Virus record (IMG/VR): IMGVR_UViG_2700989168_000004 | Direction: 5' to 3' (one strand) | Origin: a virus | Taxonomy: Duplodnaviria; Heunggongvirae; Uroviricota; Caudoviricetes | Length of the DNA: 37,712 nucleotides | Position numbers and translations under genes: made by a program | The notes under the pieces: generated by a model | The model's input: only the letters and a program-made list of their open reading frames with translations | What the model was told of the DNA's origin: nothing | Database searches by the model: none | Part shown: positions 2,981 through 25,272 of the stretch, piece after piece | How positions within the stretch are numbered: position 1 is the first letter of the stretch | Layout of the letters: each line of letters starts with the position of its first letter

Positions 2981-3158
2981 CATCCTGTGATAAAACCGTG
3001 ATTTCCTGATCCAGTTTTTTTAAGGAGTCTATTGTTTCCTGTCGATAAGACAGCACTTCACGAAGCTGGTTTATAGCTGCCAGCTTCTTTGTCATCCACT
3101 CATAAATTTCCTCATCTGTGTAGCCAGGCGCGACGATTTTGGGTTCTGTTTTGTGCAT
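2952..3158 (-). CDS. hypothetical 68-aa protein, first ORF of the leftward PL transcript; convergent with and overlapping the 3' end of the 144-aa gene
   Basis: Strong RBS (GAGGAG, 7-nt spacer) before ATG at 3156-3158; the track start at 3173 is less likely. No arginine-rich motif, so not an obvious N homolog. Confidence 0.5.
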   Translation of the reverse strand: MHKTEPKIVAPGYTDEEIYEWMTKKLAAINQLREVLSYRQETIDSLKKLDQEITVLSQDVTLDIVQTN

Positions 3159-3202
3159 TTCACATCTCCTCAAGTTATCAGTTACTTGTTGATGGGGACC
3201 AG

Positions 3203-3215
3203 ATTGTTAAAGAGC
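3203..3215 (-). promoter_or_regulatory. boxA-like element (GCTCTTTAACAAT) in the PL leader RNA
   Basis: Minus-strand sequence GCUCUUUAACAAU matches the rrn/lambdoid boxA core (Nus factor binding) and lies just 3' of a hairpin in the leader. Confidence 0.45.
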
Positions 3216-3217
3216 TA

Positions 3218-3243
3218 AGCGTCCTGTAGGGCGCTTTTTTGTT
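3218..3243 (+). terminator. rho-independent terminator after the 144-aa cargo gene
   Basis: Stem AGCGTCC / GGGCGCT (one G-U wobble) with 4-nt loop, followed by TTTTTTGTT on the plus strand; on the minus strand the same hairpin has a C-A mismatch and no U tract. Confidence 0.55.
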
Positions 3244-3320
3244 GCTAACGAATCATCCTGGACTTCATATGCCCCAGGCGGCTACTTCGTGGGCGTCCTG
3301 CCTGTTCGTTGTTTCGCTTG

Positions 3321-3353
3321 GGTACATTATGTATCTCAAAGGTACATTGTCAA
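3321..3353 (-). promoter_or_regulatory. PL-type early-left promoter with embedded operator (OL)
   Basis: Minus strand reads TTGACA - 16 nt - CATAAT; the spacer contains a near-palindrome ATGTACC-5nt-GATACAT sharing the GTAC half-site with the OR palindromes. Confidence 0.55.
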
Positions 3354-3355
3354 GT

Positions 3356-3380
3356 ATAAAAAAACCTGCCGAAGCAGGTT
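3356..3380 (-). terminator. rho-independent terminator downstream of the repressor gene
   Basis: Minus strand: AACCTGC-UUCG-GCAGGUU followed by UUUUUUAU, directly after the cI stop. Confidence 0.6.
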
Positions 3381-3392
3381 CATAAACATTGA

Positions 3393-4067
3393 TTAGGCTT
3401 TGATTTTGTATCTTCTTGGTTTTCCTGAGAAAATCACTGTACCAATTATAGAGCAATTACCGTTGATCTTAATGTAAGGCTCAGGCCAGTTTGGGTTTAA
3501 CGCTTTGAGATAACGCTGTGTCCCATCTTCTATCAACCTTTTGAAGGTGGTTTCGCCTGTATCGTGCATCAATGCAATAACGTCGTCACCGTGGCAGGCA
3601 GGTACTTCAGGATCGACAAAAATCATGTCTCCCGGGCGGTACTCATCAATCATTGAATCACCTATCACCCGCAAGATATAAGTCATTTCCCCACAGGGTA
3701 CAGGGCAGGGATACGTTTCTGCTGTGCTCAAATCAACCTCAGAATATCCAACTTCTTTCCATGCTCCGGCCTGTACCCATGATATGACAGGGACTAATGT
3801 GATTTGTTTATTAGTGATTGAAACATCAGGTTTTTTTGTGATGTTCGTTGTCTGGTGTTCTTGATCGAGCCATCCGACAGGCAGGTCGAAACATTTTTCG
3901 ATGTGTCGTGCCATGCTGTCACCGATATTTTTAGTAGCACCATCTCCCATAAACCTGCTGGTCTGGGTTGGCTCGCGATCAATCATAGTGGCAAAGGAAG
4001 AATTCCCGCCAACACCATCTCTCAGTTTTCTGGCGTTAGACCGCCGGATGTCATGGATTGTTTTCAT
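3393..4067 (-). CDS. cI: CI-type prophage repressor (N-terminal HTH, C-terminal S24 LexA-like peptidase domain)
   Basis: 224 aa; C-terminal segment with ISWVQAGAW...GDSM-like autocleavage domain pattern; divergent from a Cro-like gene across a region with palindromic operators. Confidence 0.85.
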   Translation of the reverse strand: MKTIHDIRRSNARKLRDGVGGNSSFATMIDREPTQTSRFMGDGATKNIGDSMARHIEKCFDLPVGWLDQEHQTTNITKKPDVSITNKQITLVPVISWVQAGAWKEVGYSEVDLSTAETYPCPVPCGEMTYILRVIGDSMIDEYRPGDMIFVDPEVPACHGDDVIALMHDTGETTFKRLIEDGTQRYLKALNPNWPEPYIKINGNCSIIGTVIFSGKPRRYKIKA

Positions 4068-4082
4068 AACGAAATTAAAACC

Positions 4083-4154
4083 CTTGTACCGTTAAGGTAC
4101 AAGTATCTTGAAGGTTCATTTCAATCATGTAATATGTACACCGGAGGTACATAT
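4083..4154. promoter_or_regulatory. OR-type operator region between cI and cro (two palindromes)
   Basis: Perfect 21-bp palindrome CTTGTACCGTTAAGGTACAAG (4083-4103) and inverted repeat ATATGTAC-7nt-GTACATAT (4132-4154) overlapping the cro RBS. Confidence 0.6.
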
Positions 4155-4157
4155 TGT

Positions 4158-4358
4158 ATGAAAGCGTATTGGGACTCTTTAACCAAAGAACAGCAGGGCG
4201 AGTTGGCCGGAAAAGTTGGCTCAACACCTGGCTACTTACGGCTGGTTTTCAATGGCTATAAAAAAGCCAGTTTTGTGCTGGCTAAAAAACTTGAGCAATG
4301 CACGTCAGGTGCAATTACGAAATCTGACTTAAGACCGGATATCTATCCGAAAGATTAG
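4158..4358 (+). CDS. cro: Cro-like HTH regulator (66 aa)
   Basis: Short ORF starting at ATG 4158 after GGAGG, divergent from cI; the longer track ORF from 3855 is antisense to cI and rejected. Confidence 0.7.
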   Translation: MKAYWDSLTKEQQGELAGKVGSTPGYLRLVFNGYKKASFVLAKKLEQCTSGAITKSDLRPDIYPKD

Positions 4359-4389
4359 CAGAACACTTTCAATTTTTAACCACAGAACG

Positions 4390-4953
4390 ATGAGGCTAAC
4401 CGTGGGTAAGCATCACTGGAAAATAGAAAAACAGCCTGAGTGGTACGTGAAAGCTGTCAGAAAAACTATCGCGGCGTTGCCGGGTGGTTACGCTGAAGCG
4501 GCTGACTGGCTCGATGTAACAGAAAACGCTTTATTCAACCGCCTTCGTGCAGATGGCGATCAGATTTTCCCGCTGGGATGGGCAATGGTTTTACAGCGTG
4601 CTGGTGGCACTCACTTCATTGCTGATGCTGTGGCGCAGTCTGCAAATGGCGTCTTTGTGTCTCTTCCTGACGTCGAGGATGTGGACAACGCCGATATCAA
4701 CCAACGCCTGCTGGAAGTCATTGAACAGATCGGCAGTTATTCAAAACAGATTCGTTCAGCAATTGAAGACGGTGTAGTGGAACCGCATGAGAAGACAGCA
4801 ATTAACGATGAGCTGTACCTCTCAATTTCGAAGCTGCAGGAGCATGCAGCACTGGTCTACAAAATCTTTTGCGTTTCAGAAAGTAGTGACGCCCGCGAGT
4901 GTGCAGCTCCGGGCGCCGTGGCGTGTCGTGACTGTGGAGAAACTAACGCATGA
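4390..4953 (+). CDS. early regulatory protein, possibly CII-like (Phage_CP76 / YdaT-like), tentative
   Basis: 187-aa ORF immediately after cro, the position occupied by cII-type regulators; family guess from memory only. Confidence 0.4.
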
Positions 4954-5288
4954 ACAGTTTAACAACACACTACCGTCGCTCGCAACTGATTGCGCTTCCT
5001 GTACCGGGTGGAAAAGCGAAGGTGGAGTATTGCTATGCAGTAAATGTACTAGGTGACAGGGAAATTGTAACCCACAGCTTTGCAGAGTGGGCTGTGGGTG
5101 ATTTCAACCGGCAGAAGGAGACAGTCCTTTGCGACAAGTTAACCGCTGGTTCAAAGATCACTACGGAGTGCCCGTCAGAGTCATTCGTTGGGAGCCGGAA
5201 ACACAACGGGTTATCTACCTCCGTGAAGGCTATGAGCATGAGTGCTTCAGCCCGCTCGAACAGTTTCGTTGTAAATTCAGGGAAATAG
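4950..5288 (+). CDS. hypothetical protein; frame uncertain (possible frameshift into an overlapping frame ending at 5308)
   Basis: ATG at 4952 overlaps previous stop; the C-terminal half is Ser-rich and low-complexity, whereas the alternative frame (AAGGAG RBS, TTG at 5129) gives a more protein-like sequence. Confidence 0.3.
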
Positions 5289-5297
5289 AGGTCGGTC

Positions 5298-6239
5298 ATG
5301 AGCACTAAATTAACCGGCTATGTATGGGATGGTTGCGCTGCGTCAGGCATGAAATTATCCAGCGTGGCAATTATGGCCCGCCTGGCTGATTTCAGTAATG
5401 ACGAAGGTGTGTGCTGGCCATCAATTGAAACCATTGCCCGTCAGATTGGCGCGGGGATGAGTACCGTCAGAACGGCTATCGCACGGCTGGAAGCAGAAGG
5501 CTGGTTAACGCGTAAGGCGCGTCGCCAGGGTAACCGCAATGCGTCGAATGTTTATCAGCTTAACGTTGCGAAGCTTCAGGCAGCGGCATTTTCTCAACTG
5601 TCAGATTCTGACCCGTCAAAATCTGACGCATCAAAATCTGACCCGTCAAAATTTGATGCGTCGAAATCTGGCAAAAAAGCGGGTTTTCACCCGTCAGAAT
5701 CTGGCGGGGATCCGTCAGTAAAATCAAAACATGATCCGTCAGATAAAAAAACTTCTCGTCCGGACGCTTCGCAACCGGACACGCAGACGGCTGAACAGGA
5801 GTTTTTAACTCGCCATCCTGATGCGGTTGTATTCAGCCCTAAAAAGCGCCAGTGGGGAACGCAGGATGATTTGACCTGCGCACAGTGGCTCTGGAAAAAA
5901 ATCATCGCCCTGTACGAGCAGGCCGCCGAATGTGACGGCGAGGTGGTTCGTCCCAAAGAACCGAACTGGACAGCCTGGGCAAACGAAATTCGCCTGATGT
6001 GTGTGCAGGATGGTCGTACTCACAAACAAATCTGCGAGATGTACAGCCGCGTCAGCCGCGATCCGTTCTGGTGCCGTAACGTGCTCAGCCCGTCGAAGCT
6101 GCGGGAAAAATGGGATGAGCTTTCCCTGCGCTTATCGCCGTCCGTCAGCACGTACACAGAAAAACGCGAAGACCCGTACTTCAAAGCCAGTTACGACAAC
6201 GTGGACTACAGCCAGATCCCGGCAGGATTCAGGGGGTGA
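5298..6239 (+). CDS. replication initiation protein (lambda O-like, N-terminal HTH) with internal origin iterons
   Basis: 313 aa; N-terminal HTH-like segment; central repetitive linker (SDPSKSDASKSDPSKFDASKS) encoded by tandem DNA iterons, as for lambda ori within O. Confidence 0.7.
   Translation: MSTKLTGYVWDGCAASGMKLSSVAIMARLADFSNDEGVCWPSIETIARQIGAGMSTVRTAIARLEAEGWLTRKARRQGNRNASNVYQLNVAKLQAAAFSQLSDSDPSKSDASKSDPSKFDASKSGKKAGFHPSESGGDPSVKSKHDPSDKKTSRPDASQPDTQTAEQEFLTRHPDAVVFSPKKRQWGTQDDLTCAQWLWKKIIALYEQAAECDGEVVRPKEPNWTAWANEIRLMCVQDGRTHKQICEMYSRVSRDPFWCRNVLSPSKLREKWDELSLRLSPSVSTYTEKREDPYFKASYDNVDYSQIPAGFRG
5601..5750. repeat. replication-origin-like iterons (about 13-bp units, GTCA(A/G)AAT(C/T)TGAC, 14-15 bp periodicity) followed by an A-rich tract
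   Basis: At least five tandem copies plus degenerate copies (CCGTCAGAATCTGG, CCGTCAGTAAAATC, CCGTCAGATAAAAAAAC) inside the O-like gene. Confidence 0.6.
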
Positions 6240-6241
6240 TC

Positions 6242-6730
6242 ATGAGTCTTTTGAATGAAGTTCAGAAATACATTGAAGCCCATCCGGGCTGTACTTCCGG
6301 AGATATTGCGGATGCTTTTGCCGGTTACTCACGGCAGCGCGTTCTGCAGTCAGCAAGCAAGTTACGTCAGAGTGGGCGTGTGGCTCACCGTTGTGAAGGA
6401 GATACACGCAGACATTTCCCGCGCCTGACTGAGAGAGCGCAGGAACCGGAACCACAACCAGTTCGTGAAACCAGACCTGTGCGCAATTTCTATGTCGGCA
6501 CTAACGATCCCCGTGTGATTTTGTGCCTGACCCGCCAGGCGGAAGAACTGGAGTCCAGGGGCTTATACCGTCGTGCTGCAACGGTGTGGATGGCGGCATT
6601 CCGTGAAAGCCACTCCCAGCCAGAACGAAACAATTTTCTGGCGCGTCGTGAGCGGTGCTTACGGAAAAGCAGCAAGCGCGCTGCATCGGGTGAAGAGTGG
6701 TATCTGTCAGGGAATTACGTGGGGGCTTAA
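6242..6730 (+). CDS. PerC-like transcriptional regulator (tentative)
   Basis: C-terminal region LESRGLYRRAATVWMAAF resembles the PerC/Pch family motif as I recall it; ATG at 6242 follows AGGGGG RBS and overlaps the O stop. Confidence 0.4.
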   Translation: MSLLNEVQKYIEAHPGCTSGDIADAFAGYSRQRVLQSASKLRQSGRVAHRCEGDTRRHFPRLTERAQEPEPQPVRETRPVRNFYVGTNDPRVILCLTRQAEELESRGLYRRAATVWMAAFRESHSQPERNNFLARRERCLRKSSKRAASGEEWYLSGNYVGA

Positions 6731-7383
6731 TGAGTAATAAATATTGCCAGGCGCTGGTGGAACTGCGGAACAAACCAGCCCATGAACTGAAGGAAGTGGG
6801 CGATCAGTGGCGCACGCCGGACAACATTTTCTGGGGAATTAACACCCTGTTTGGCCCGTTTGTTCTGGATCTGTTCACTGACGGTGATAACGCCAAATGT
6901 GCCGCGTATTACACGGCGGAAGACAACGCGCTGGCGCATGACTGGTCAGAACGTCTTGCGGAGCTTAAAGGTGCTGCCTTTGGTAATCCCCCATACAGCC
7001 GCGCCAGTCAGCATGAGGGGCAATACATCACCGGCATGCGTTACATCATGAAACATGCCAGTGCCATGCGTGATAAGGGCGGGCGCTATGTTTTCCTGAT
7101 CAAAGCTGCCACCAGCGAAGTGTGGTGGCCGGAAGATGCAGATCATATTGCTTTTATTCGCGGGCGTATTGGTTTTGAACTGCCTGTCTGGTTTATCCCG
7201 AAAGACGAGAAGCAGGTACCGACAGGAGCTTTTTTCGCTGGTGCTATTGCTGTTTTTGACAAGACCTGGAAGGGACCGGCAATCAGCTACATCGGGCGCG
7301 ATGAACTTGAGGCATGTGGTGAGGCGTTTCTGGCGCAGGTTCGCCAGCAGGCGGAAAAACTGGTCAGGGAGATGGCGGCATGA
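6730..7383 (+). CDS. phage N6-adenine DNA methyltransferase (Dam-type)
   Basis: Contains the catalytic NPPY motif (FGNPPYS) and phage Dam-family layout; start ATG overlaps previous stop (TAATG). Confidence 0.85.
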   Translation: MSNKYCQALVELRNKPAHELKEVGDQWRTPDNIFWGINTLFGPFVLDLFTDGDNAKCAAYYTAEDNALAHDWSERLAELKGAAFGNPPYSRASQHEGQYITGMRYIMKHASAMRDKGGRYVFLIKAATSEVWWPEDADHIAFIRGRIGFELPVWFIPKDEKQVPTGAFFAGAIAVFDKTWKGPAISYIGRDELEACGEAFLAQVRQQAEKLVREMAA

Positions 7384-8922: not shown

Positions 8923-9918
8923 GTGACCGTGAGAGCACTACTGACCCCTGAAATTGCCCCGCGTATGGGGATCGTATTGTTCAGACCAGGTTCAGAGCTG
9001 ATGCCCCTGTTTATGCAGGGGCGTGTCCTGCTGGAGCCTGAGCCGGAACGTTATTCATCTTTCGCCAGTGGTGCTGTTCCGGCGGCATCACAACCGCTGG
9101 CGGATGATCCTGCCGTTCGGGCCGTGTTCCGCAATGAGGCAGTGATCCGTCGTGCTGGTGGCGTGGAATGTCTTGAAAGCTGGTTACTTCGTGAAAAAGG
9201 CTGCCAGTGGCCTCATTCCGACTGGCACAGCGAGAACATGACCACAATGCGACACGCGCCGGGTGCAATCCGTCTGTGCTGGCACTGCGATAACCAGCTG
9301 CGCGATCAGTTCACGGAACGGCTGGAATCAATGGCAACGGATAACTGTGCCCGCTGGGTGTTGTCTGTTGTGCGTCGGGATCTCGGTTTTGATGACAGTC
9401 ACGTTGTGACAATGCCGGAACTGTGCTGGTGGCTGGTTCGTAATGACCTGGCGGGAGCCTTGCCGGAAAGTGCAGCCCGTAAGGCACTGAGATTACCGAA
9501 GCCTGTTGTGCCGTCTGTCACCCGGGAAAGTGACCTTGTTCCTTCGGTTCCTGCCACCAGCATCATCCAGGATAAAGTGAAAAAGGTGCTGGCGCTGAAA
9601 GTGGATCCGGAGTCGCCGGAGTCTTTTATGTTACGCCCAAAACGTCGCCGCTGGGTTAACGAAAAGTACACGCGCTGGGTTAAGACACAGCCGTGTGCAT
9701 GTTGTGGAAAGCCTGCTGATGATCCCCACCACCTGATAGGCCACGGTCAGGGCGGAATGGGTACAAAAGCGCATGACCTCTTTGTATTGCCTTTGTGCAG
9801 AAAGCATCACGACGAGCTGCATGCGGATACCGCGGCATTTGAAGAGAAGTATGGCTCCCAGCTGGAGTTGATATTTCGTTTTATCGATCGTGCGCTGGCA
9901 ACTGGCGTGCTGGCCTGA
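8923..9918 (+). CDS. DUF968-family protein with C-terminal Cys/His (HNH-like) motif
   Basis: C-terminal [21 protein letters not shown]...CRKHHDELH pattern; start codon uncertain (GTG at 8923 or 8929, ATG at 8965). Confidence 0.5.
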
Positions 9919-9935
9919 TTTTGTGGAGAAAGTTG

Positions 9936-10313
9936 ATGCGTGATATTCAGATGGTTCTTGAGCGTTGGGGAGCGTGGGCGGCTAATAATCATGAAGATGT
10001 GACCTGGTCGTCCATTGCCGCCGGTTTTAAGGGATTAATTCCTTCAAAAGTAAAATCTCGCCCACAATGTTGTGACGATGACGCGATGATCATTTGCGGG
10101 TGCATGGCCCGTCTGAAAAAGAACAACAGCGATTTGCATGATTTATTGGTGGACTATTATGTCGGCGGCATGACTTTTATGGCGCTTGCACGTAAGCATG
10201 GGCGATCTGATTGTTGGGTTGGCAGGATGCTCCAGAAAGCTGAGGGCGTAGTGGAGGGTATGCTGATGGTGTTGGATCTCCGATTGGAGATGGATGCTGA
10301 TTGTTCGAAATAA
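9936..10313 (+). CDS. late-gene antitermination protein Q
   Basis: About 125 aa with conserved Cys cluster ([16 protein letters not shown]), located immediately upstream of a short leader plus terminator and the late region; GGAGA RBS before ATG 9936. Confidence 0.75.
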
Positions 10314-10412
10314 TTAAAGGAAAAGTTGCTGTCTGATTGTCATTAGTCTAACATTTTAAATGTTGGAATCGCAACGTAGTTATTACCATATAACAGCTTG
10401 TTTCCTGATTTA

Positions 10413-10441
10413 GCCAGCCTCCCCAAAGGCTGGTTTTTTTC
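10413..10441 (+). terminator. tR'-type rho-independent terminator downstream of the Q gene (late promoter/qut region at about 10320-10410)
   Basis: Stem CCAGCC / GGCTGG with 8-nt loop followed by TTTTTTTCT. Confidence 0.6.
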
Positions 10442-10468
10442 TAATAAGTATTATTTCGGGTAGGGATT

Positions 10469-10993
10469 TTATTGTTTAACCCATAATAATTCATTGACAT
10501 TGAATCCCAACTTTTGAGCGGTTCGCACATAGTCTGCTTTTACTTTATCTGGAATAGTTGGGGTCCTTGCCAGAATCCATAGGTATTCTCTGTTCGGACC
10601 ACTGACAAGAGCATACTTATACTCATCATCCAGTTTGATTACATTATAGCCACCATAGAAGGGGCCAAAAAACGAAACCTTCAATGCTGCAGTTTTAGTA
10701 TCTCCAGTAAAGTATGCTTTACCTTCGCTCTCGCTCCATTTATTTTTCGTTGGATCGTATCCACGGTTAAGTACACGAATCCCTCCGTCGTTCCGTTTTC
10801 CATAAGTAGCGCTGACCTGTTCCAGATCACGTTCGAACCGGTTCTCGAGGCGAGCTATTTCATACCATTTTCCGAGGTAGCGGTTGGCGTCAAAATTTGT
10901 AATCGGCTGCACACCTTTAGGTGGTGTCGGGGCCTTACATGCTATAAGAGTGAAAGAGAGTGCAATGCCAGTCAACACAGGCCATAACTTCAT
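10469..10993 (-). CDS. blc: outer-membrane lipocalin (Blc homolog) lipoprotein
   Basis: Signal peptide with lipobox (LIAC), and long colinear matches to E. coli Blc as recalled (NFDAxRYLGxWYEIAR, KVSFFGPFYGGYNVI, YLWILxRTP). Confidence 0.9.
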   Translation of the reverse strand: MKLWPVLTGIALSFTLIACKAPTPPKGVQPITNFDANRYLGKWYEIARLENRFERDLEQVSATYGKRNDGGIRVLNRGYDPTKNKWSESEGKAYFTGDTKTAALKVSFFGPFYGGYNVIKLDDEYKYALVSGPNREYLWILARTPTIPDKVKADYVRTAQKLGFNVNELLWVKQ

Positions 10994-11185
10994 AATAAAT
11001 CCTGTACTTTTGATAGTTGAGAGTAAGTATGAAAGATAGATGATTACGACCGATCACTTAAAGAACTTTCATACTATATTAGGAATAGTCCATAACAGAA
11101 AAATTGTCAGTGATGACGCCAGAAAGGCAATTTATTCCGTGCACTACACAGTTTATGTGTTAATGAATTAGTCAAGGGGGAGAAT

Positions 11186-12145
11186 ATGATAAAAAAACCT
11201 GTGATTGGAATCAGCGGTTGTTTGGCCGGTTCTGCTGTTCGTTTTGATGGTGGTCACAAAAGAGCTGACTTTTTAATGGACAAATTAGTGGAATGGGTAA
11301 CATTCAGACCAGTATGTCCGGAAATGGCTATAGGGCTGCCAGTTCCGCGTCCTGCTCTACGTCTTGTGCGCTCGACGCAAGGAAATATACGGATGTGTTT
11401 CAGCCACGACCAGAATGAGGATGTGACAGAGAGAATGACAGAGTTTAGTCGTTCTTATATGGACAAATTAAAGGATGTATCGGGGTTTGTGGTTTGTGCT
11501 AAATCTCCCAGCTGTGGCATGGAGCGCGTGCGTGTCTATGATGAAAATGGTAATCGAGGTCGTAAAGATGGAGTGGGACTATTTACGAGTACTTTGATGG
11601 AAAAGTTTTCCTGGCTACCGGTTGAAGAGGATGGGCGATTACATGATCCAGTGCTTCGTGAGAATTTTGTTGAAAGAGTTTTTGCTTTGCATGAGCTCAA
11701 TCACCTTTACAAGGAGAAATTATCAAGAAGAGAGTTATTAGCTTTTCATAGTCGTTATAAGCTTCAGTTGTTGTCGCATAGTCAGGCAGGCTATAAAGAT
11801 ATGGGACCATTTGTGGCTGCAATACACGAGTGGGCGGACCTTGAATCATACTTTGAGGTGTATCGTGATAAGCTGATGGCGATTCTCAGAAAACCTGCAT
11901 CACGTAAAAATCACACGAATGTGCTGATGCATATACAGGGGTATTTTAGTAACTACTTAAGTACACGCCAGCGTAAAGAGTTGAGCGAGGTTATACTTAA
12001 CTATCGTTCTGGCACATTACCTCTTCTTGCGCCGTTGACTCTGCTGAAGCATTATCTGGGTGAGTATCCTAATGATTACTTGCTTACACAGAATTACTTC
12101 GATCCCTATCCGGACGAACTGGCTCTAAGACTGATGGTAAATTAA
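11186..12145 (+). CDS. DUF523 (TudS-like thiouracil desulfurase family) - DUF1722 fusion protein (tentative)
   Basis: N-terminal GISGCLAG..VRFDGG and further conserved Cys residues resemble DUF523; C-terminal half resembles YbgA/DUF1722; RBS GGGGGAG before ATG. Confidence 0.5.
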   Translation: MIKKPVIGISGCLAGSAVRFDGGHKRADFLMDKLVEWVTFRPVCPEMAIGLPVPRPALRLVRSTQGNIRMCFSHDQNEDVTERMTEFSRSYMDKLKDVSGFVVCAKSPSCGMERVRVYDENGNRGRKDGVGLFTSTLMEKFSWLPVEEDGRLHDPVLRENFVERVFALHELNHLYKEKLSRRELLAFHSRYKLQLLSHSQAGYKDMGPFVAAIHEWADLESYFEVYRDKLMAILRKPASRKNHTNVLMHIQGYFSNYLSTRQRKELSEVILNYRSGTLPLLAPLTLLKHYLGEYPNDYLLTQNYFDPYPDELALRLMVN

Positions 12146-12496
12146 TTGTATGCGATATCATCCAAAAGGATGAGTTCCTGCATGCAGGATATTTACAATC
12201 GTAAAAACTACACTATGATACCCAGAGTGTCAGTTTGTATAAAAACTCTGTTTACGCTGAAGAAACAATTGAGATGCAACTTAAAGTTGGTAAACATGCC
12301 AGTCAAAATATATAATATTATGATTCCACGCAGCTATATATAATATAACAGATTGGTTTAATAATTTGTCTTTGTGAGTTAAATACATAATTTTATACTT
12401 GTGATGCAATGAAATTTTCCTTATTGTTGAACTTGCGAATATTGATTTTCCACCTATACTTACCTGGTGTAACCCCAATGATATCAGGTGGATAAT

Positions 12497-13228
12497 ATGC
12501 CATACATATGTTCTATCATTTTGGTGTTGAACTCGTTTGATGTCCGAATTGGTAAAGAAGATATTTTGTTTAAAAAAGGAAGTGCTGTTCTCATTGATTA
12601 CAATTTAAAAGATTTTTTTTCATCAAATATAGATCATGTAATGATCGTAGATGTTGAAGAGAAAACAGTTAATGATTTCTTTAAAAGCAACACACTCTCA
12701 CCTTTTTCTGTAAGAAGGTTTTATCCGGCATACTTGATGGTGGAATGTGAAGATTTTTCATTGTTAAAGAACTTGATTGCATGCTTGAATTGTGATGGCA
12801 GAACTGTGGATTTTGTTAGAAATCAAATATCACTTGCATGTCTTGCTATCTTATCTTCAGAGAAAATAGTGCAAAGTTTTTTATTTGGATGTCTTAATAG
12901 TTTAGGAAGTAAAGTTAAGGCTATTATTCACACGGATATATCTGCAGCATGGAGACTTTGTGATATATCTTCAAGACTGTATCTGAGTGAAAGTCTGTTA
13001 AAAAGAAAATTAAAGCACGAAGGCTTATCATTTAGTAAGTTAATTCTTGAAGAGCGAATGGTGATGGCGGAAAGGTTATTAAGCTACAATTTATATTCTG
13101 TTGGAAAAGTTGCTGAGATATGCGGTTATGAAAACACGTCATATTTTGTGAGTGTTTTCAGAAGATATTTTGGTGTTCCTCCCCATCAATATTCATCAAG
13201 ATTTTTTTTAGAAAAAGACATGATGTAA
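12497..13228 (+). CDS. AraC-family transcriptional regulator
   Basis: C-terminal dual-HTH AraC signature (...KVAEICGYENTSYFVSVFRRYFGVPPHQY); gene is strongly AT-rich; ATG 12497 after AGGTGG. Confidence 0.85.
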   Translation: MPYICSIILVLNSFDVRIGKEDILFKKGSAVLIDYNLKDFFSSNIDHVMIVDVEEKTVNDFFKSNTLSPFSVRRFYPAYLMVECEDFSLLKNLIACLNCDGRTVDFVRNQISLACLAILSSEKIVQSFLFGCLNSLGSKVKAIIHTDISAAWRLCDISSRLYLSESLLKRKLKHEGLSFSKLILEERMVMAERLLSYNLYSVGKVAEICGYENTSYFVSVFRRYFGVPPHQYSSRFFLEKDMM

Positions 13229-13289
13229 CGTGATGCGTTTTAATGATTTTGTAATTTTCGTATTTGATAATTGTATGATGCTTTCAGCT

Positions 13290-13321
13290 ACGCCAGAATA
13301 ATCGCTGGCGTTTTTCTTTTT
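13290..13321 (+). terminator. rho-independent terminator after the AraC-family gene
   Basis: Stem ACGCCAG / CTGGCGT followed by TTTTTCTTTTT. Confidence 0.6.
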
Positions 13322-13416
13322 GAATAGATGTTCAAGCCTTACGCTAATGTAACTTCTATACCTTTCCTCTTCGTTCCGAACCGTGTACACCATCCGTTAT
13401 TTGCGGAGGTGAGGCT

Positions 13417-13632
13417 ATGAAATCTATGGATAAGTTAACAACGGGCATTGCCTACGGCACCTCCGCAGGCAGTGCTGGCTACTGGTTTTTACAGCTGCTC
13501 GATAAAGTCACGCCCTCACAGTGGGCAGCAATAGGTGTGCTGGGTAGCCTGGTATTTGGCCTGCTGACGTACCTGACAAACCTTTATTTCAAGATTAAAG
13601 AAGATAAGCGCAAGGCTGCGAGAGGTGAATAA
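13417..13632 (+). CDS. pinholin (phage 21 S21-type class II holin) with dual-start motif
   Basis: Near-identical by recall to S21 ([24 protein letters not shown]...KAARGE); two Met codons (M1, M4) as in antiholin/holin S2171/S2168. Confidence 0.9.
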
Positions 13633-14129
13633 TGCCTCCATCATTACGAAAAGCCGTTGCTGCGGCTATTGGTGGCGGGGCTATTGCTATAGCATCTGTG
13701 TTAATCACTGGCCCAAGTGGTAACGATGGTCTGGAAGGCGTCAGCTACATACCATATAAAGATATCGTTGGTGTATGGACTGTATGTTACGGGCATACCG
13801 GAAAAGACATTATGCTCGGTAAAACGTATACCGAAGCAGAATGCAAAGCCCTCCTGAATAAAGACCTTGCCACTGTCGCCAGACAAATTAACCCGTACAT
13901 CAAAGTCGATATACCGGAAACAACGCGCGGCGCTCTTTACTCGTTCGTTTACAACGTTGGTGCTGGAAATTTCAGAACATCGACACTTCTTCGCAAAATA
14001 AACCAGGGCGATATCAAAGGCGCATGTGATCAGCTACGGCGCTGGACATACGCTGGCGGTAAGCAATGGAAAGGGCTGATGACTCGCCGTGAGATTGAGC
14101 GTGAAGTCTGTTTGTGGGGGCAACAATGA
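13632..14129 (+). CDS. SAR (signal-anchor-release) endolysin, lysozyme family
   Basis: N-terminal hydrophobic Gly/Ala-rich SAR segment followed by lysozyme catalytic region; start overlaps holin stop (TAATG). Confidence 0.9.
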
Positions 14130-14569
14130 GTAGAGTAACCGCGATTATCTCCGCTCTGGTTATCAGCATCATCGTCTGCCTGTCATGGGCTGTTAATCAT
14201 TACCGTGATAACGCCATGACCTACAAAGAACAGCGCGACAAAGCCACATCCATCATCGCTGACATGCAGAAGCGTCAACATGATGTAGCTGAACTCGACG
14301 CCAGATACACAAAGGAGCTTGCTGATGCTAACGCGACTATCGAAAGTCTTCGTGCTGATGTTTCTGCTGGTCGTAAGTGGCTGCACGTCAAAGCAGTCTG
14401 TCCGGACAAGCATAAAACCACCGCCGCCTCCGGCGTGGATGATGCTTCCAGCCCCAGACTTACTGACACCGCTCAACGGGATTATTTCGTTCTCAGAGAG
14501 CGCATCGAAACCATAACTAACCAATTGAATGGCCTGCAAGAATATGTGAGATCACAGTGTTCATATTAG
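14126..14569 (+). CDS. i-spanin Rz
   Basis: N-terminal TM segment, coiled-coil-rich body, directly after the endolysin (ATGA overlap); contains embedded Rz1 frame. Confidence 0.8.
14358..14516 (+). CDS. o-spanin Rz1 (lipoprotein) embedded in the +1 frame of Rz
   Basis: Signal peptide with lipobox (VVSGC) followed by proline-rich segment ([10 protein letters not shown]); entirely inside Rz. Confidence 0.7.
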
Positions 14570-14607
14570 AAAAGTCTTATCATAAGATTTTTGTATATGG
14601 ATGCATT

Positions 14608-14982
14608 ATGTCTCAATACGCTCACGTTGCTTTAATCGCTTATCATTTGGTGGCTGATAGCTCAATGACTCCTCGTGATGCATGGGATGCAGCTATCGCA
14701 GAGGTTACAGAAAGCGAATCGTCAAGAAAGAAGATATGCCCAAGGGCAACATTTCTCGCCCTGGCGGATAGCGGTTACCTGAAGAATGTAAAACCACTGC
14801 ATGGGGAGAAAAAAGGCGGTAAGTTGTACCAAAGGGCAATTGAAGTTGCGAATCTGATTCTTGATTTACCCGGAATCAGTAAAGCTGAATTGGTTGATAA
14901 AACTGGTTACAAAGACAGGCAAGGGTCTTATGACCTGATTCTCGCTCTGTATCATCATGAGCAACTCCAGCGATCGGAATAA
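14608..14982 (+). CDS. hypothetical 124-aa protein (unknown function)
   Basis: ORF between spanins and packaging genes; the track start at 14557 is a GTG overlapping Rz, so ATG 14608 is preferred; no motif recognised. Confidence 0.45.
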   Translation: MSQYAHVALIAYHLVADSSMTPRDAWDAAIAEVTESESSRKKICPRATFLALADSGYLKNVKPLHGEKKGGKLYQRAIEVANLILDLPGISKAELVDKTGYKDRQGSYDLILALYHHEQLQRSE

Positions 14983-15368: not shown

Positions 15369-15776
15369 ATGCCACCACGAACCCCAAAAGCCTGCCGTGT
15401 TCGCGGCTGCCGCCATACCACAACTGNNNNNNNNNNNNNNNNNNNNNNNNNNNNNNNNNNNNNNNNNNNNNNNNNNNNNNNNNNNNNNNNNNNNNNNNNN
15501 NNNNNNNNNNNNNNNNNNNNNNNNNAGCAATACAAGCCGGGCCAGTCCAGACACCAGCGCGGTTATGGTTCGAAATGGGATGTTATCCGTGAACGTGTGC
15601 TCAAGCGTGACAAAGGACTGTGTCAGTTATGTCTGCGTGGTGGTGTGGTACGTGAGGCGAAAACCGTTGACCACATCATCCCTAAAGCGCATGGCGGCAC
15701 TGATGCCGACAGCAATCTGCAGAGCCTGTGCTGGCCGTGTCATAAGGCGAAGACGGCCCGTGAACGGTTGAAGTAA
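15369..15776 (+). CDS. phage HNH endonuclease (packaging-associated); interrupted by N run 15427-15525
   Basis: C-terminal HNH motif (VDHIIPKAHGG...N...CWPCH); N-terminal CRVRGC zinc-finger-like start; immediately upstream of terminase genes. Confidence 0.8.
   Translation: MPPRTPKACRVRGCRHTTTXXXXXXXXXXXXXXXXXXXXXXXXXXXXXXXXXXQYKPGQSRHQRGYGSKWDVIRERVLKRDKGLCQLCLRGGVVREAKTVDHIIPKAHGGTDADSNLQSLCWPCHKAKTARERLK
15427..15525. other. run of 99 N (assembly gap or masked bases)
   Basis: Literal n characters in the sequence. Confidence 1.
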
Positions 15777-15901: not shown

Positions 15902-16487
15902 ATGGCTGGAACGGCGGGGCGTTCCGGGCGTCGCCCCAAGCCAACGGCGCGCAAGGCGCTGNNNNNNNNNNNNNNNNNNNNNNNNNNNNNNNNNNNNNNN
16001 NNNNNNNNNNNNNNNNNNNNNNNNNAACCCCGGCAAGCGAGCCCTGAACAAAGATGAACCTGTTTTTACGCCCATCAAAGGTGTTGAGCCACCGGAGTGG
16101 TTCGCAGAAGAAGATCTCCCTCTCGCCACGATCATGTGGCAACTGACAACCAAAGAACTCTGCGGTCAGGGCCTGCTGTGCGTGACTGACCTTGCGGTAC
16201 TTGAGCGGTGGTGCGTGGCCTATGAGTTCTGGCGACGTGCCGTGAAAAATATTGCCAGACAGGGCAACACCATCACCGGTGCAATGGGTGGCATGGTTAA
16301 AAATCCGGAGCTGACCGCCAAGAAAGAACAGGAGTCCGAGATGAGCAGCACGGGGGCAATGCTCGGACTCGACCCCAGCAGCCGCCAGCGTCTGATTGGC
16401 CTGGCGGGGCAGAAGAAAGCNNNNNNNNNNNNNNNNNNNNNNNNNNNNNNNNNNNNNNNNNNNNNNNNNNNNNNNNNNNNNNNNTAA
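15902..16487 (+). CDS. terminase small subunit (P27-family-like); interrupted by two N runs, frame inferred
   Basis: Starts MAGTAGRSGRRPKPTARKAL (typical of this family) at ATG 15902; resumes after the gap in the track frame; stop TAA directly after the second N run. Confidence 0.7.
15962..16025. other. run of 64 N
   Basis: Literal n characters. Confidence 1.
16421..16484. other. run of 64 N
   Basis: Literal n characters. Confidence 1.
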
Positions 16488-23728: not shown

Positions 23729-25272
23729 CACCATTCCGTCGAATACGCTGGTTCCGTTGTTTTATGCGGAAATGGATAACCAGGCGGCGAATACTGCACA
23801 GGACAGCGGAGCATCGCTGCTGATTGGTCATGCCAATAACGGTGCAGAGATTGTTGCCAACAGTCTGGTGCTGATGCCATCGGCAGACTATGCACGCCAG
23901 ATTTGTGGTGCGGGAAGTCAGCTGGCGCGTATGGTCGAGGCTTATCGCCAGACCGACCCGTTTGGTGAACTGTATGTGATTGCCGTTCCTGAATCCACGG
24001 GCGCGGCGGCAACAGTTACGCTGACGGTGACCGGCGCGGCAACCGAAACCGGCACGGTGAATGTTTATGTGGGACGTACCCGCGTGCAGGCACCGGTGAC
24101 CAACGGCGATAACGTCGCGACGATTGCCAGCAGTATCCAGGATGCCATCAATGCCGTTCCGACCCTGCCGTTTACGGCTTCATCTTCGGCAGGCGTGGTC
24201 ACACTGACCGCGCGTCATAAGGGGCTTTGCGGGAATGAAATTCCTGTCAGCCTCAATTACTACGGCTTTGGTGGGGGCGAAGTGCTGCCAGCGGGCGTAC
24301 AGATTGCCGTGGCGACGGGTACCGCCGGAACGGGCGCTCCTGTTCTCACCGGCGCGGNNNNNNNNNNNNNNNNNNNNNNNNNNNNNNNNNNNNNNNNNNN
24401 NNNNNNNNNNNNNNNNNNNNNNNNNNNNNNNNNNNNNNNNNNNNNNNNNNNNNNNNNNNNNNNNNNNNNNNNNNNNNNNNNNNNNNNNNNNNNTGGTGAC
24501 CGAGATGAACGATACCAGCGGTCGCTGGAGCTATGCGCGTCAGCTGTATGGTCATGTGTACACGGCAAAGATCGGCACGCTGTCAGAACTGGTGACCGCA
24601 GGTGACCAGTTTAACCAGCAGCACATTACCCTGGCGGGATACGAAAAAGAGACCCAGACGCCTGCCGACGAGCTGGCGGCAAGCCGTACCGCCCGCGCAG
24701 CGGTGTTTATTCGCAACGATCCGGCACGTCCCACGCAGACCGGTGAGCTGGTGGGTATGCTGCCTGCGCCGAAGGGGAAACGGTTCACGATGACCGAACA
24801 ACAGACCCTGCTGTCTCATGGCGTGGCAACGGCGTATGTCGAAAGCGGGGTGCTGCGCATTCAGCGTGATGTCACCACGTACAGGAAAAACGCTTACGGT
24901 GTTGCGGATAACAGCTACCTCGACAGCGAGACGCTGCATACCAGCGCGTATGTACTGCGCAAACTGAAATCCGTCATTACCAGTAAGTACGGGCGTCACA
25001 AGCTTGCCAGCGACGGTACCCGCTTTGGTCCCGGTCAGGCGATTGTCACCCCGGCGGTGATCAAAGGGGAACTGCTGGCAACCTACCGTCAGCTTGAGCG
25101 TGCGGGGATCGTGGAAAACTACGAACTTTTTAAGCAGTACCTGGTTGTGGAGCGTGATGCCAGCGATCCGAACCGCCTGAACACGCTGTTCCCGCCTGAC
25201 TATGTTAACCAGTTGCGTGTCTTTGCCGTGGTTAACCAGTTCCGTCTTCAGTATTCAGAGGAGTCCGCATAA
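23712..25272 (+). CDS. contractile tail sheath protein (Mu gpL-like); interrupted by N run 24358-24493
   Basis: N- and C-terminal parts lie either side of the gap in different nominal frames; combined size about 520 aa. Confidence 0.85.
24358..24493. other. run of 136 N
   Basis: Literal n characters. Confidence 1.

Follow-up and report, generated by a model that had tools for sequence, protein, structure and literature searches.

A Blc-type lipocalin, RudS and a PatE/Psr-type regulator between Q and the lysis genes: a probable lysogenic-conversion module of Escherichia coli lambdoid prophages

In Shiga toxin (Stx) phages the toxin genes stx1 or stx2 are situated downstream of the antiterminator gene Q and a tR′-type terminator, and upstream of S. 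In DLP12 and mEp332 the slot downstream of Q is occupied by nmpC, and for phage lambda bor and lom are listed as late-operon cargo. Described here is the corresponding interval in a sequence from a tailed virus (Caudoviricetes; IMG/VR record IMGVR_UViG_2700989168_000004), the whole of which, 37,712 nucleotides (nt), is called the window. Positions 10314-13416 of the window, the same position as that of stx and behind a homologous Q gene, hold a gene for a Blc-type lipocalin on the minus strand, followed on the plus strand by rudS and by a gene for an AraC-family regulator.

The families concerned are already known, and each part of the locus has a close relative: RudS_vir, the PatE/Psr regulators, Blc, and the stx/nmpC slot. 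The fusion of a TudS domain with DUF1722 was named RudS in 2024, and it removes sulfur from 4-thiouridine (s4U) in tRNA (PMC11417400). RudS_vir, which is gp66 of phage 1H12, was among six orthologues studied; its overexpression in E. coli lowered tRNA s4U, with the weakest effect of the six, and gave the shortest lag on 4-thiouracil (PMC11417400). Mutations of Glu51, Arg60, Ser111 and Ser113 abolish the activity of RudS_KT, the Pseudomonas enzyme, and RudS overexpression diminishes the growth delay induced by ultraviolet A (UVA); the same study describes E. coli as being without TudS or RudS homologues (PMC11417400). As to the regulators, PMC10877973 and PMC10057817 present PatE and PsrB as prophage-encoded activators of gadE and hdeA that raise acid resistance, and PsrA as a repressor of type III secretion that acts by raising GadE/YhiF; AppY is given there as another prophage-encoded regulator.

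The interpretation favored here, with a probability of about 0.7, is that the three genes form a lysogenic-conversion (“moron”) module in the variable Q-lysis slot of E. coli lambdoid prophages, and that the module was built in two steps. The cluster is real, intact and not rare, and belongs among the cargo modules that are common in these prophages. Of 5426 complete E. coli genomes, 1152 (~21%) have a match to the cargo (positions 10445-13285), and in 993 the match covers 80% or more of it, rudS included. It occurs as three alleles, which are ≥99%, ~94.7% and ~90% identical to the window, and on several backbones: the KplE1/argW-type of the window, Qin-type, and the lambda-type of phage 1H12 and of the isolated phage IdasGreatGrand. 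The full set of Q, blc, rudS, AraC gene and holin gene is present in the same order and orientation in 61 of 80 IMG/VR loci. A preliminary description of this DNA had considered the combination unusual; since the trio is common in E. coli prophages, and is found in isolated phages too, that view fails, and each of the three proteins already has its own PHROG family. The further opinion that none of the three, all of them host-type genes, is a standard phage function needs qualification: a viral RudS has already been studied, and prophage AraC regulators such as PatE, PsrA/B and AppY are a known class. The features of the locus are as follows.

9936-10313, plus strand: Q, late-gene antiterminator (PF06530, E=2.5e-51; RefSeq start); left border of the slot
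10314-10443, plus strand: late-promoter leader and tR′-type intrinsic terminator (hairpin 10412-10435 plus U-run)
10469-10993, minus strand: Blc-type outer-membrane lipocalin lipoprotein, second blc paralogue, 174 amino acids (aa); opposes the late operon
10994-11185, no strand: divergent blc/rudS intergenic region, 192 bp, 34% G+C
11186-12145, plus strand: rudS, TudS-DUF1722 fusion, 319 aa (PF04463 and PF08349)
12146-12496, no strand: AT-rich spacer 5′ of the regulator gene, 32% G+C; its length varies by allele
12497-13228, plus strand: PatE/Psr-type AraC-family regulator, 243 aa (HTH_18 and HTH_AraC)
12613-12620, plus strand: T8 homopolymer, regulator codons 39-42; recurrent frameshift site
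13290-13323, plus strand: intrinsic terminator between regulator and holin genes (hairpin 13290-13311 plus T-run)
13417-14569, plus strand: lysis cassette (PF04971, PF00959, PF03245); right border of the slot
13417-13632, plus strand: S21-type (phage-21-type) holin (PF04971)
13632-14129, plus strand: phage lysozyme (endolysin; PF00959)
14114-14569, plus strand: Rz (PF03245)

The interval is the exact gap between the Q stop codon (ending at 10313) and the holin start codon (13417). Profile hidden Markov model scores for the cluster and flanking genes are far above chance level. The regulator gene has a G+C content of 31.8%; blc and rudS have 43-44% and the flanking phage genes 48-52%. The gene identities, strands, AT-richness and terminator of the preliminary description agree with these results and its coordinates are correct; the AraC-family open reading frame begins at GTG 12488 in the frame used there and at ATG 12497 in RefSeq. 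Several of the properties expected of a moron are found here, namely a position between Q and holin genes past a tR′-type terminator, a G+C content of 32-44% against 48-52%, and a slot whose cargo varies. The variation seen among relatives had been suggested as a check: the occupants are nmpC in DLP12 and mEp332, stx2AB in Stx2 phage II and, in Sakai Sp4, psrA together with a CAAX protease gene and tRNA genes.

The Q protein has 81% aa identity with the antiterminator of Sakai Sp4. At the DNA level Q is 76-78% identical to the Q genes of many Stx1a and Stx2a phages, which bears out the earlier equation of this interval with the stx slot; with a query that begins at the open reading frame start at 9921, homology to the Stx-phage genes stops near query nt 355-375, ~20-40 nt before the Q stop codon. 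The 130 nt past Q are kept in all three module alleles. This post-Q leader and its terminator align with the annotated late promoter/tR′ terminator region upstream of stx2AB in Stx2 phage II. The last element of the leader, the hairpin GCCAGCCTCCCCAAAGGCTGG with its T7, scarcely differs from the terminator annotated before stx2A in that phage. The alignment thus places the cargo downstream of a tR′-type terminator, in the stx position. The hairpin (10412-10435, ~100 nt past Q) has a folding energy of -14.9 kcal/mol (z = -3.5 vs shuffles); the one at 13290-13311, which is also kept in all three alleles, has -11.3 kcal/mol (z = -2.3).

The leader is also ~60% identical to the region of Stx2 II that encodes the small RNA StxS. 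A StxS-like role in the activation of rpoS was considered and is unsupported: the 9-nt rpoS-pairing seed TGTAACGAA reads GCAACGTAG here, and because of this change the same rpoS target is unlikely. Energies of full-length duplexes are no better than those of shuffles and are uninformative. Two candidates for a late promoter were set aside as well. The sequence TTGCTG-17-TAACAT at 10326-10354 makes a weak candidate; to the putative -35 and -10 boxes annotated in Stx2 II, no convincing hexamers align in the leader of the window. An Rfam scan of positions 9500-14200 gave sub-threshold matches only, with a terminator hairpin as the best of these, and a tRNA scan of the whole window found no tRNA gene, whereas Stx phages and Sp4 have such genes in this slot.

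The protein encoded at 10469-10993 matches Lipocalin_2 (PF08212) with E=1e-43, and it scores 314.5 bits with NCBIfam NF007786 “outer membrane lipoprotein Blc”, above the cutoff of 267, which places it in the Blc subfamily. The signal peptide, as read from the translation, is MKLWPVLTGIALSFTLIAC-K, with the lipobox LIAC and, as the residue for outer-membrane sorting, Lys at +2. This lipobox aligns with that of K-12 Blc, VVAC-S. The nearest relatives of the phage protein, at ~80% aa identity, are the products of chromosomal blc genes found beside rudS in Enterobacter, Leclercia and Citrobacter sedlakii.

The middle gene is assigned as RudS, a tRNA 4-thiouridine desulfidase, on the basis of its domains and residues. 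TudS/DUF523 (PF04463) covers residues 7-149 and DUF1722 (PF08349) residues 192-309, each with E ~3e-40, which is the RudS architecture. Three Cys residues that correspond to the [4Fe-4S] ligands, Cys12, Cys44 and Cys110, are present in the translation and match the positions listed for RudS_vir and RudS_ST. The catalytic residues Glu51, Arg60, Ser111 and Ser113 of RudS_KT correspond here to Glu46 (in CPE), Arg55 (in PVPR) and Ser107/Ser109 (in KSPSC), when placed by their offset from the cysteines on the sequence and not by a structure-based alignment. The protein is 93.1% identical in aa sequence to RudS_vir. It should be noted that the published absence of RudS from E. coli holds for K-12 but not for the species, as ~21% of the complete genomes carry a prophage copy.

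The regulator displays a C-terminal double helix-turn-helix (PF12833, HTH_18, and PF00165, HTH_AraC). When compared with reference proteins drawn from the Sakai and K-12 genomes, its full-length identity is 54% over 235 aa to PatE (ECs_0287), 39% over 235 aa to PsrA (ECs_1087), and 32% to both YdeO and AppY. The similarity is unevenly spread: the DNA-binding domain is 68% identical to that of PatE, and the N-terminal domain has 40% identity to PatE and 27% to PsrA. The best curated match is the YdeO equivalog NF007407, though at 127.3 bits the protein falls well below the cutoff of 348 and is not a YdeO. It is a distinct full-length paralogue in the PatE/Psr prophage group. An AlphaFold model of the regulator has a mean pLDDT of 85, and in this model the DNA-binding domain superposes on GadX with a root mean square deviation (rmsd) of 1.4 Å and 40% identity. 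A fold search with the whole protein gave CsvR, Rns and ToxT as best matches, all of them loose (template modelling score, TM, 0.42-0.44; rmsd ~15 Å). A fatty-acid pocket was considered and is not claimed, the whole-protein match to Rns/ToxT being a loose one (TM ~0.43).

In Sakai Sp4, psrA (ECs_1087; positions 13678-14391 of locus L067) is annotated as 195 aa, and the open frame gives 237 aa. This frame aligns with the regulator of the window from residue 1; thus the annotated psrA start may be too far downstream.

A run of eight T residues at 12613-12620 is a site of recurrent frameshifts in the regulator gene. Among 51 classifiable near-identical IMG/VR copies, nine have T7, T6 or T9 in place of T8. 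These variants are spread over at least six haplotype clusters; the frameshift has therefore arisen repeatedly. In the complete genomes the exact T7 version of a 95-nt segment was found in 24 and the exact T8 version in 190. Protein databases commonly list a 195-aa form of the regulator with Met49 as its start (P0011). The gene has a second T8 run at 13202-13209, and indels in or beside it (13202-13212) alter the C-terminal tail in some alleles and give a 237-aa form. The frameshifts at the first tract could represent slippage-driven on/off switching or the repeated loss of a costly regulator.

The history of the cluster was approached through chromosomal homologues, with one genome scanned per species. 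Citrobacter, Enterobacter, Leclercia, Kluyvera and Klebsiella are among the genera with rudS homologues (67-76% aa identity) in their chromosomes. A blc homologue (~80% aa) is present upstream of rudS (70-76% aa), on the opposite strand, in C. sedlakii and in the majority of the Enterobacter and Leclercia genomes. The C. sedlakii pair (positions 4283-5960 of locus L009) is directly divergent, with a spacer of 187 bp vs 192 bp in the window; its outer neighbors are a BCCT transporter gene and a pseudouridine synthase gene. In Enterobacter (E. hormaechei, positions 3018-5960 of locus L013) and Leclercia a MerR/MlrA-type regulator gene and a transthyretin-like gene are found between blc and rudS. 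The AraC homologue adjoins none of the chromosomal blc-rudS loci examined. This absence, together with the different base composition of the regulator gene, makes capture of the pair followed by a separate addition of the regulator the simplest history. In the first step the divergent blc-rudS pair, an old neighborhood in enterobacterial chromosomes, would have been captured from one of these as a unit; in the second, the PatE/Psr lineage of prophage regulators would have contributed the AT-rich AraC-family gene downstream.

The blc/rudS intergenic region would presumably hold the promoters of both genes, and purine runs similar to Shine-Dalgarno sequences precede both start codons. Among the phage alleles the region is kept, but it shows no conservation with its chromosomal counterparts, and thus no common operator can be read from it.

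If the module is one of lysogenic conversion, the Blc-like lipoprotein, a lipocalin expected to bind lipids, would be made in the lysogen from its own promoter and reach the outer membrane. RudS, by means of its [4Fe-4S] cluster, would strip sulfur from the 4-thiouridine of host tRNA, and so reduce the near-UV photosensor and the UVA growth delay. The regulator may bind AT-rich promoters of the GAD acid-fitness island, of the gadE/hdeA type, as PatE and PsrB do, and raise acid resistance; by analogy with these proteins, gadE/hdeA-type promoters are its probable targets. On induction, polymerase modified by Q would read rudS and the regulator gene, with blc transcribed antisense. As rudS and the regulator gene are co-oriented and lie between the tR′-type terminator and the holin gene, the modified polymerase should read through both, and presumably also through the second terminator; since blc is antisense to late transcription, read-through can apply to the two plus-strand genes only. 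Gene identities, conserved catalytic residues of RudS, synteny, distribution and purifying selection are thus established for the locus itself, and s4U removal for the 93%-identical RudS_vir; we infer the Q read-through, the promoters, the targets of the regulator and any benefit to the host.

The same arrangement suggests that the plus-strand genes might serve the phage itself, with RudS and the regulator made mainly from the Q-antiterminated late transcript. Erasure of s4U would then let UVA-damaged or stringently arrested cells keep translating, and the regulator would re-program the dying host. In line with this are the orientation of the two genes and their position before the holin gene, the resemblance of the leader to the late leader of Stx phages, the presence of the module in plaque-forming phages (IdasGreatGrand and 1H12), and the effect of RudS overexpression on the UVA-induced growth delay (PMC11417400). 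However a module built as a whole for late expression would not have blc antisense to the late transcript. The AT-rich upstream region and the terminator that the AraC gene has to itself are typical of morons expressed in lysogens, and its relatives PatE and PsrA/B act in lysogens. In addition, frameshifts are frequent in the regulator gene, and defective prophages such as those of Qin type retain the module. Service to the phage as the main role is thus considered unlikely.

Another possibility is that the three genes form a single regulatory unit, in which the PatE-like regulator controls the divergent blc and rudS promoters, perhaps through a fatty-acid ligand. The genes do stay together in three co-diverging alleles; the best whole-protein structural matches of the regulator, CsvR, Rns and ToxT, are fatty-acid-binding regulators, and Blc binds lipids. 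The structural match is weak overall, however, with the TM and rmsd values given above. Chromosomal blc-rudS loci are without this regulator, and those of Enterobacter and Leclercia have the MerR/MlrA-type gene instead. Strain XH990 has lost the AraC gene and keeps blc and rudS intact, and many other carriers have the AraC gene frameshifted. Control of the whole trio by its own regulator is therefore quite improbable.

Lack of any current function must also be considered, i.e., that the genes are passenger DNA spread by linkage to a successful Q/lysis module. Insertions of IS2, IS3 and IS1 and truncations do occur, and frameshifts of the AraC gene recur. Yet comparison of the alleles, with dS reaching 0.59, gave ratios of nonsynonymous to synonymous divergence (dN/dS) of 0.07-0.20 in blc and 0.11-0.24 in rudS; those in the regulator gene were 0.20-0.27. 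Values of 0.07-0.27 over synonymous divergence of this extent show that all three genes have long been kept by selection. Every catalytic residue of RudS is intact, and the great majority of the carrier genomes (993 of 1152) hold at least 80% of the cargo. A passenger origin without function is likewise improbable, if anything slightly more so than a single regulatory unit. Variable prophage slots in general often hold defense genes, but a cassette for anti-phage defense or superinfection exclusion is highly improbable here, as none of the three proteins matches any PADLOC defense model and all three have clear assignments to families outside defense.

Several observations weigh against the reading of the interval as a functional lysogenic-conversion module, or against parts of it. 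No late promoter was located with confidence in the post-Q leader. As for signals of the module's own, a terminator is present after the AraC gene, but a promoter scan did not rise above chance, with 14 matches vs 10.9 ± 3.6 in shuffles; promoter-like hexamers at 12192-12219 and 12287-12316 belong to these matches, and because such matches are no commoner than in shuffled sequence no promoter is claimed. With 54% identity to PatE, and 40% in the sensing domain, the regulator could have different targets. About 18% of near-identical regulator copies are frameshifted at one T8 tract, and IS2, IS3 and IS1 insertions or truncations hit the module in a minority of genomes, which together indicate that not every carrier needs all three genes. 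Finally, RudS_vir gave the weakest tRNA desulfidation despite good protein levels; tRNA may therefore not be the only or the best substrate of this enzyme.

Some further occurrences of the locus were recorded. E. coli B-LamR (NZ_CP115179; positions 4492-7081 of locus L072) has a Qin-type prophage remnant with Q and an intact blc-like gene; an IS3 cuts its rudS after ~49 codons, and the regulator and lysis genes are gone. Two short contigs (L055 and L060) of a metagenome-assembled genome assigned to Saccharibacteria, “Candidatus Nanosynbacter sp.” D148_maxbin.008, contain Q, blc, rudS, the AraC gene and the holin gene; at 93-100% protein identity, this segment is almost certainly contamination of the bin. 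A literature search by gene names and RefSeq protein accessions found no description of the trio or of its prevalence. The genes orf10/orf6 of phiv142-3, a prophage of avian pathogenic E. coli (PMC7724020), were considered and proved unrelated, as their primer sequences match neither the window nor related loci.

The backbone of the window is that of a KplE1/CPS-53-type (KplE1/argW-type) prophage adjoining dsdA, with a contractile tail. Rz is followed by a gene with DUF6979 (14557-14982; phrog_5039, of unknown function), which probably belongs to the cargo as well; directly after Rz, related prophages have bor or iss on the opposite strand. The window has four runs of N, at 15427-15525 (99 bases), 15962-16025 (64), 16421-16484 (64) and 24358-24493 (136). 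By position in strain WP8-S18-ESBL-07, the first three correspond to HNH-endonuclease/terminase genes and the fourth to the tail region. They look like masking rather than biology.

The results have some consequences for annotation and for strain comparison, although the general understanding of phage cargo is unchanged by them. RefSeq labels the three proteins as “lipocalin family”, “YbgA family” and “helix-turn-helix domain-containing”, and in PHROGs all three are of unknown function; they could be better annotated as a Blc-like lipoprotein, RudS (tRNA s4U desulfidase) and a PatE/Psr-family regulator. The regulator would be a widespread addition, from outside enterohaemorrhagic E. coli (EHEC), to the prophage regulators that feed the acid-resistance network, and the recurrent T8 frameshift is a simple candidate for on/off variation of it. 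As ~21% of complete genomes carry a prophage RudS, tRNA s4U levels, UVA growth delay and sensitivity to 4-thiouracil may differ between strains according to their prophage content. A possible effect of prophage RudS on s4U and UVA physiology and a possible T8-driven phase variation of the regulator are the points of most interest.

A bolder proposal, which is speculative and on balance doubtful, is that prophage RudS is a working tRNA “eraser” that phages have spread through E. coli. Removal of the s4U8 photosensor would uncouple near-UV light from tRNA crosslinking and stringent arrest, and the PatE-like regulator would perhaps be switched by the T8 tract. Were this so, the eraser would be made in lysogens or from the Q-driven late transcript, prophages induced by UV would still be translated into virions, and about one-fifth of E. 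coli strains would have a UVA physiology unlike that of K-12.

A comparison with the known systems shows what is shared and what is particular to this locus. The slot is that of stx and nmpC, but the cargo is neither a toxin, as in Stx phages, nor a porin, as in nmpC-bearing phages, and one gene of the three is antisense to the late transcript. K-12 Blc (b4149) and the phage lipocalin both belong to the Blc family and both have a lipoprotein signal with a lipobox. Their full-length aa identity is only 59%, and the phage gene thus represents a second blc lineage that travels with rudS; the K-12 gene adjoins ampC, whereas the phage lineage adjoins rudS.

RudS_vir (NC_049947, H3V29_gp66) has the same length of 319 aa, the same TudS and DUF1722 domains and the same Cys12, Cys44 and Cys110 positions as RudS of the window, and in phage 1H12 its neighbors, Q, blc, the AraC gene and the holin gene, are arranged as they are here. 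The 1H12 rudS is a different allele (~92% nt identity), and 1H12 is a lambda-type siphovirus whereas the window is a KplE1/argW-type prophage. RudS_ST/ORF319 (STM1389) of Salmonella shares the 319-aa length, the domain architecture and the positions of the three cysteines as well. The published work on RudS concerns the enzyme alone, its prophage context and prevalence being outside the scope of that work.

PatE (Z0321/ECs_0287) is homologous to the regulator over its full length, the N-terminal domain included, and is AT-rich and prophage-borne like it. PsrA (Z1789/ECs_1087), also AT-rich and prophage-borne, occupies the same slot in Sakai Sp4, between the 81%-identical Q protein and the lysis genes. 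PsrB (Z2104) is an AraC-like regulator of the GAD acid-resistance island encoded by an EHEC prophage, and YdeO and AppY are more distant. The regulator described here differs from PatE, PsrA and PsrB in that its carriers are mostly non-EHEC E. coli and that it accompanies blc and rudS rather than effector or pch loci; the frameshift hot spot at the T8 tract further sets it apart from them.

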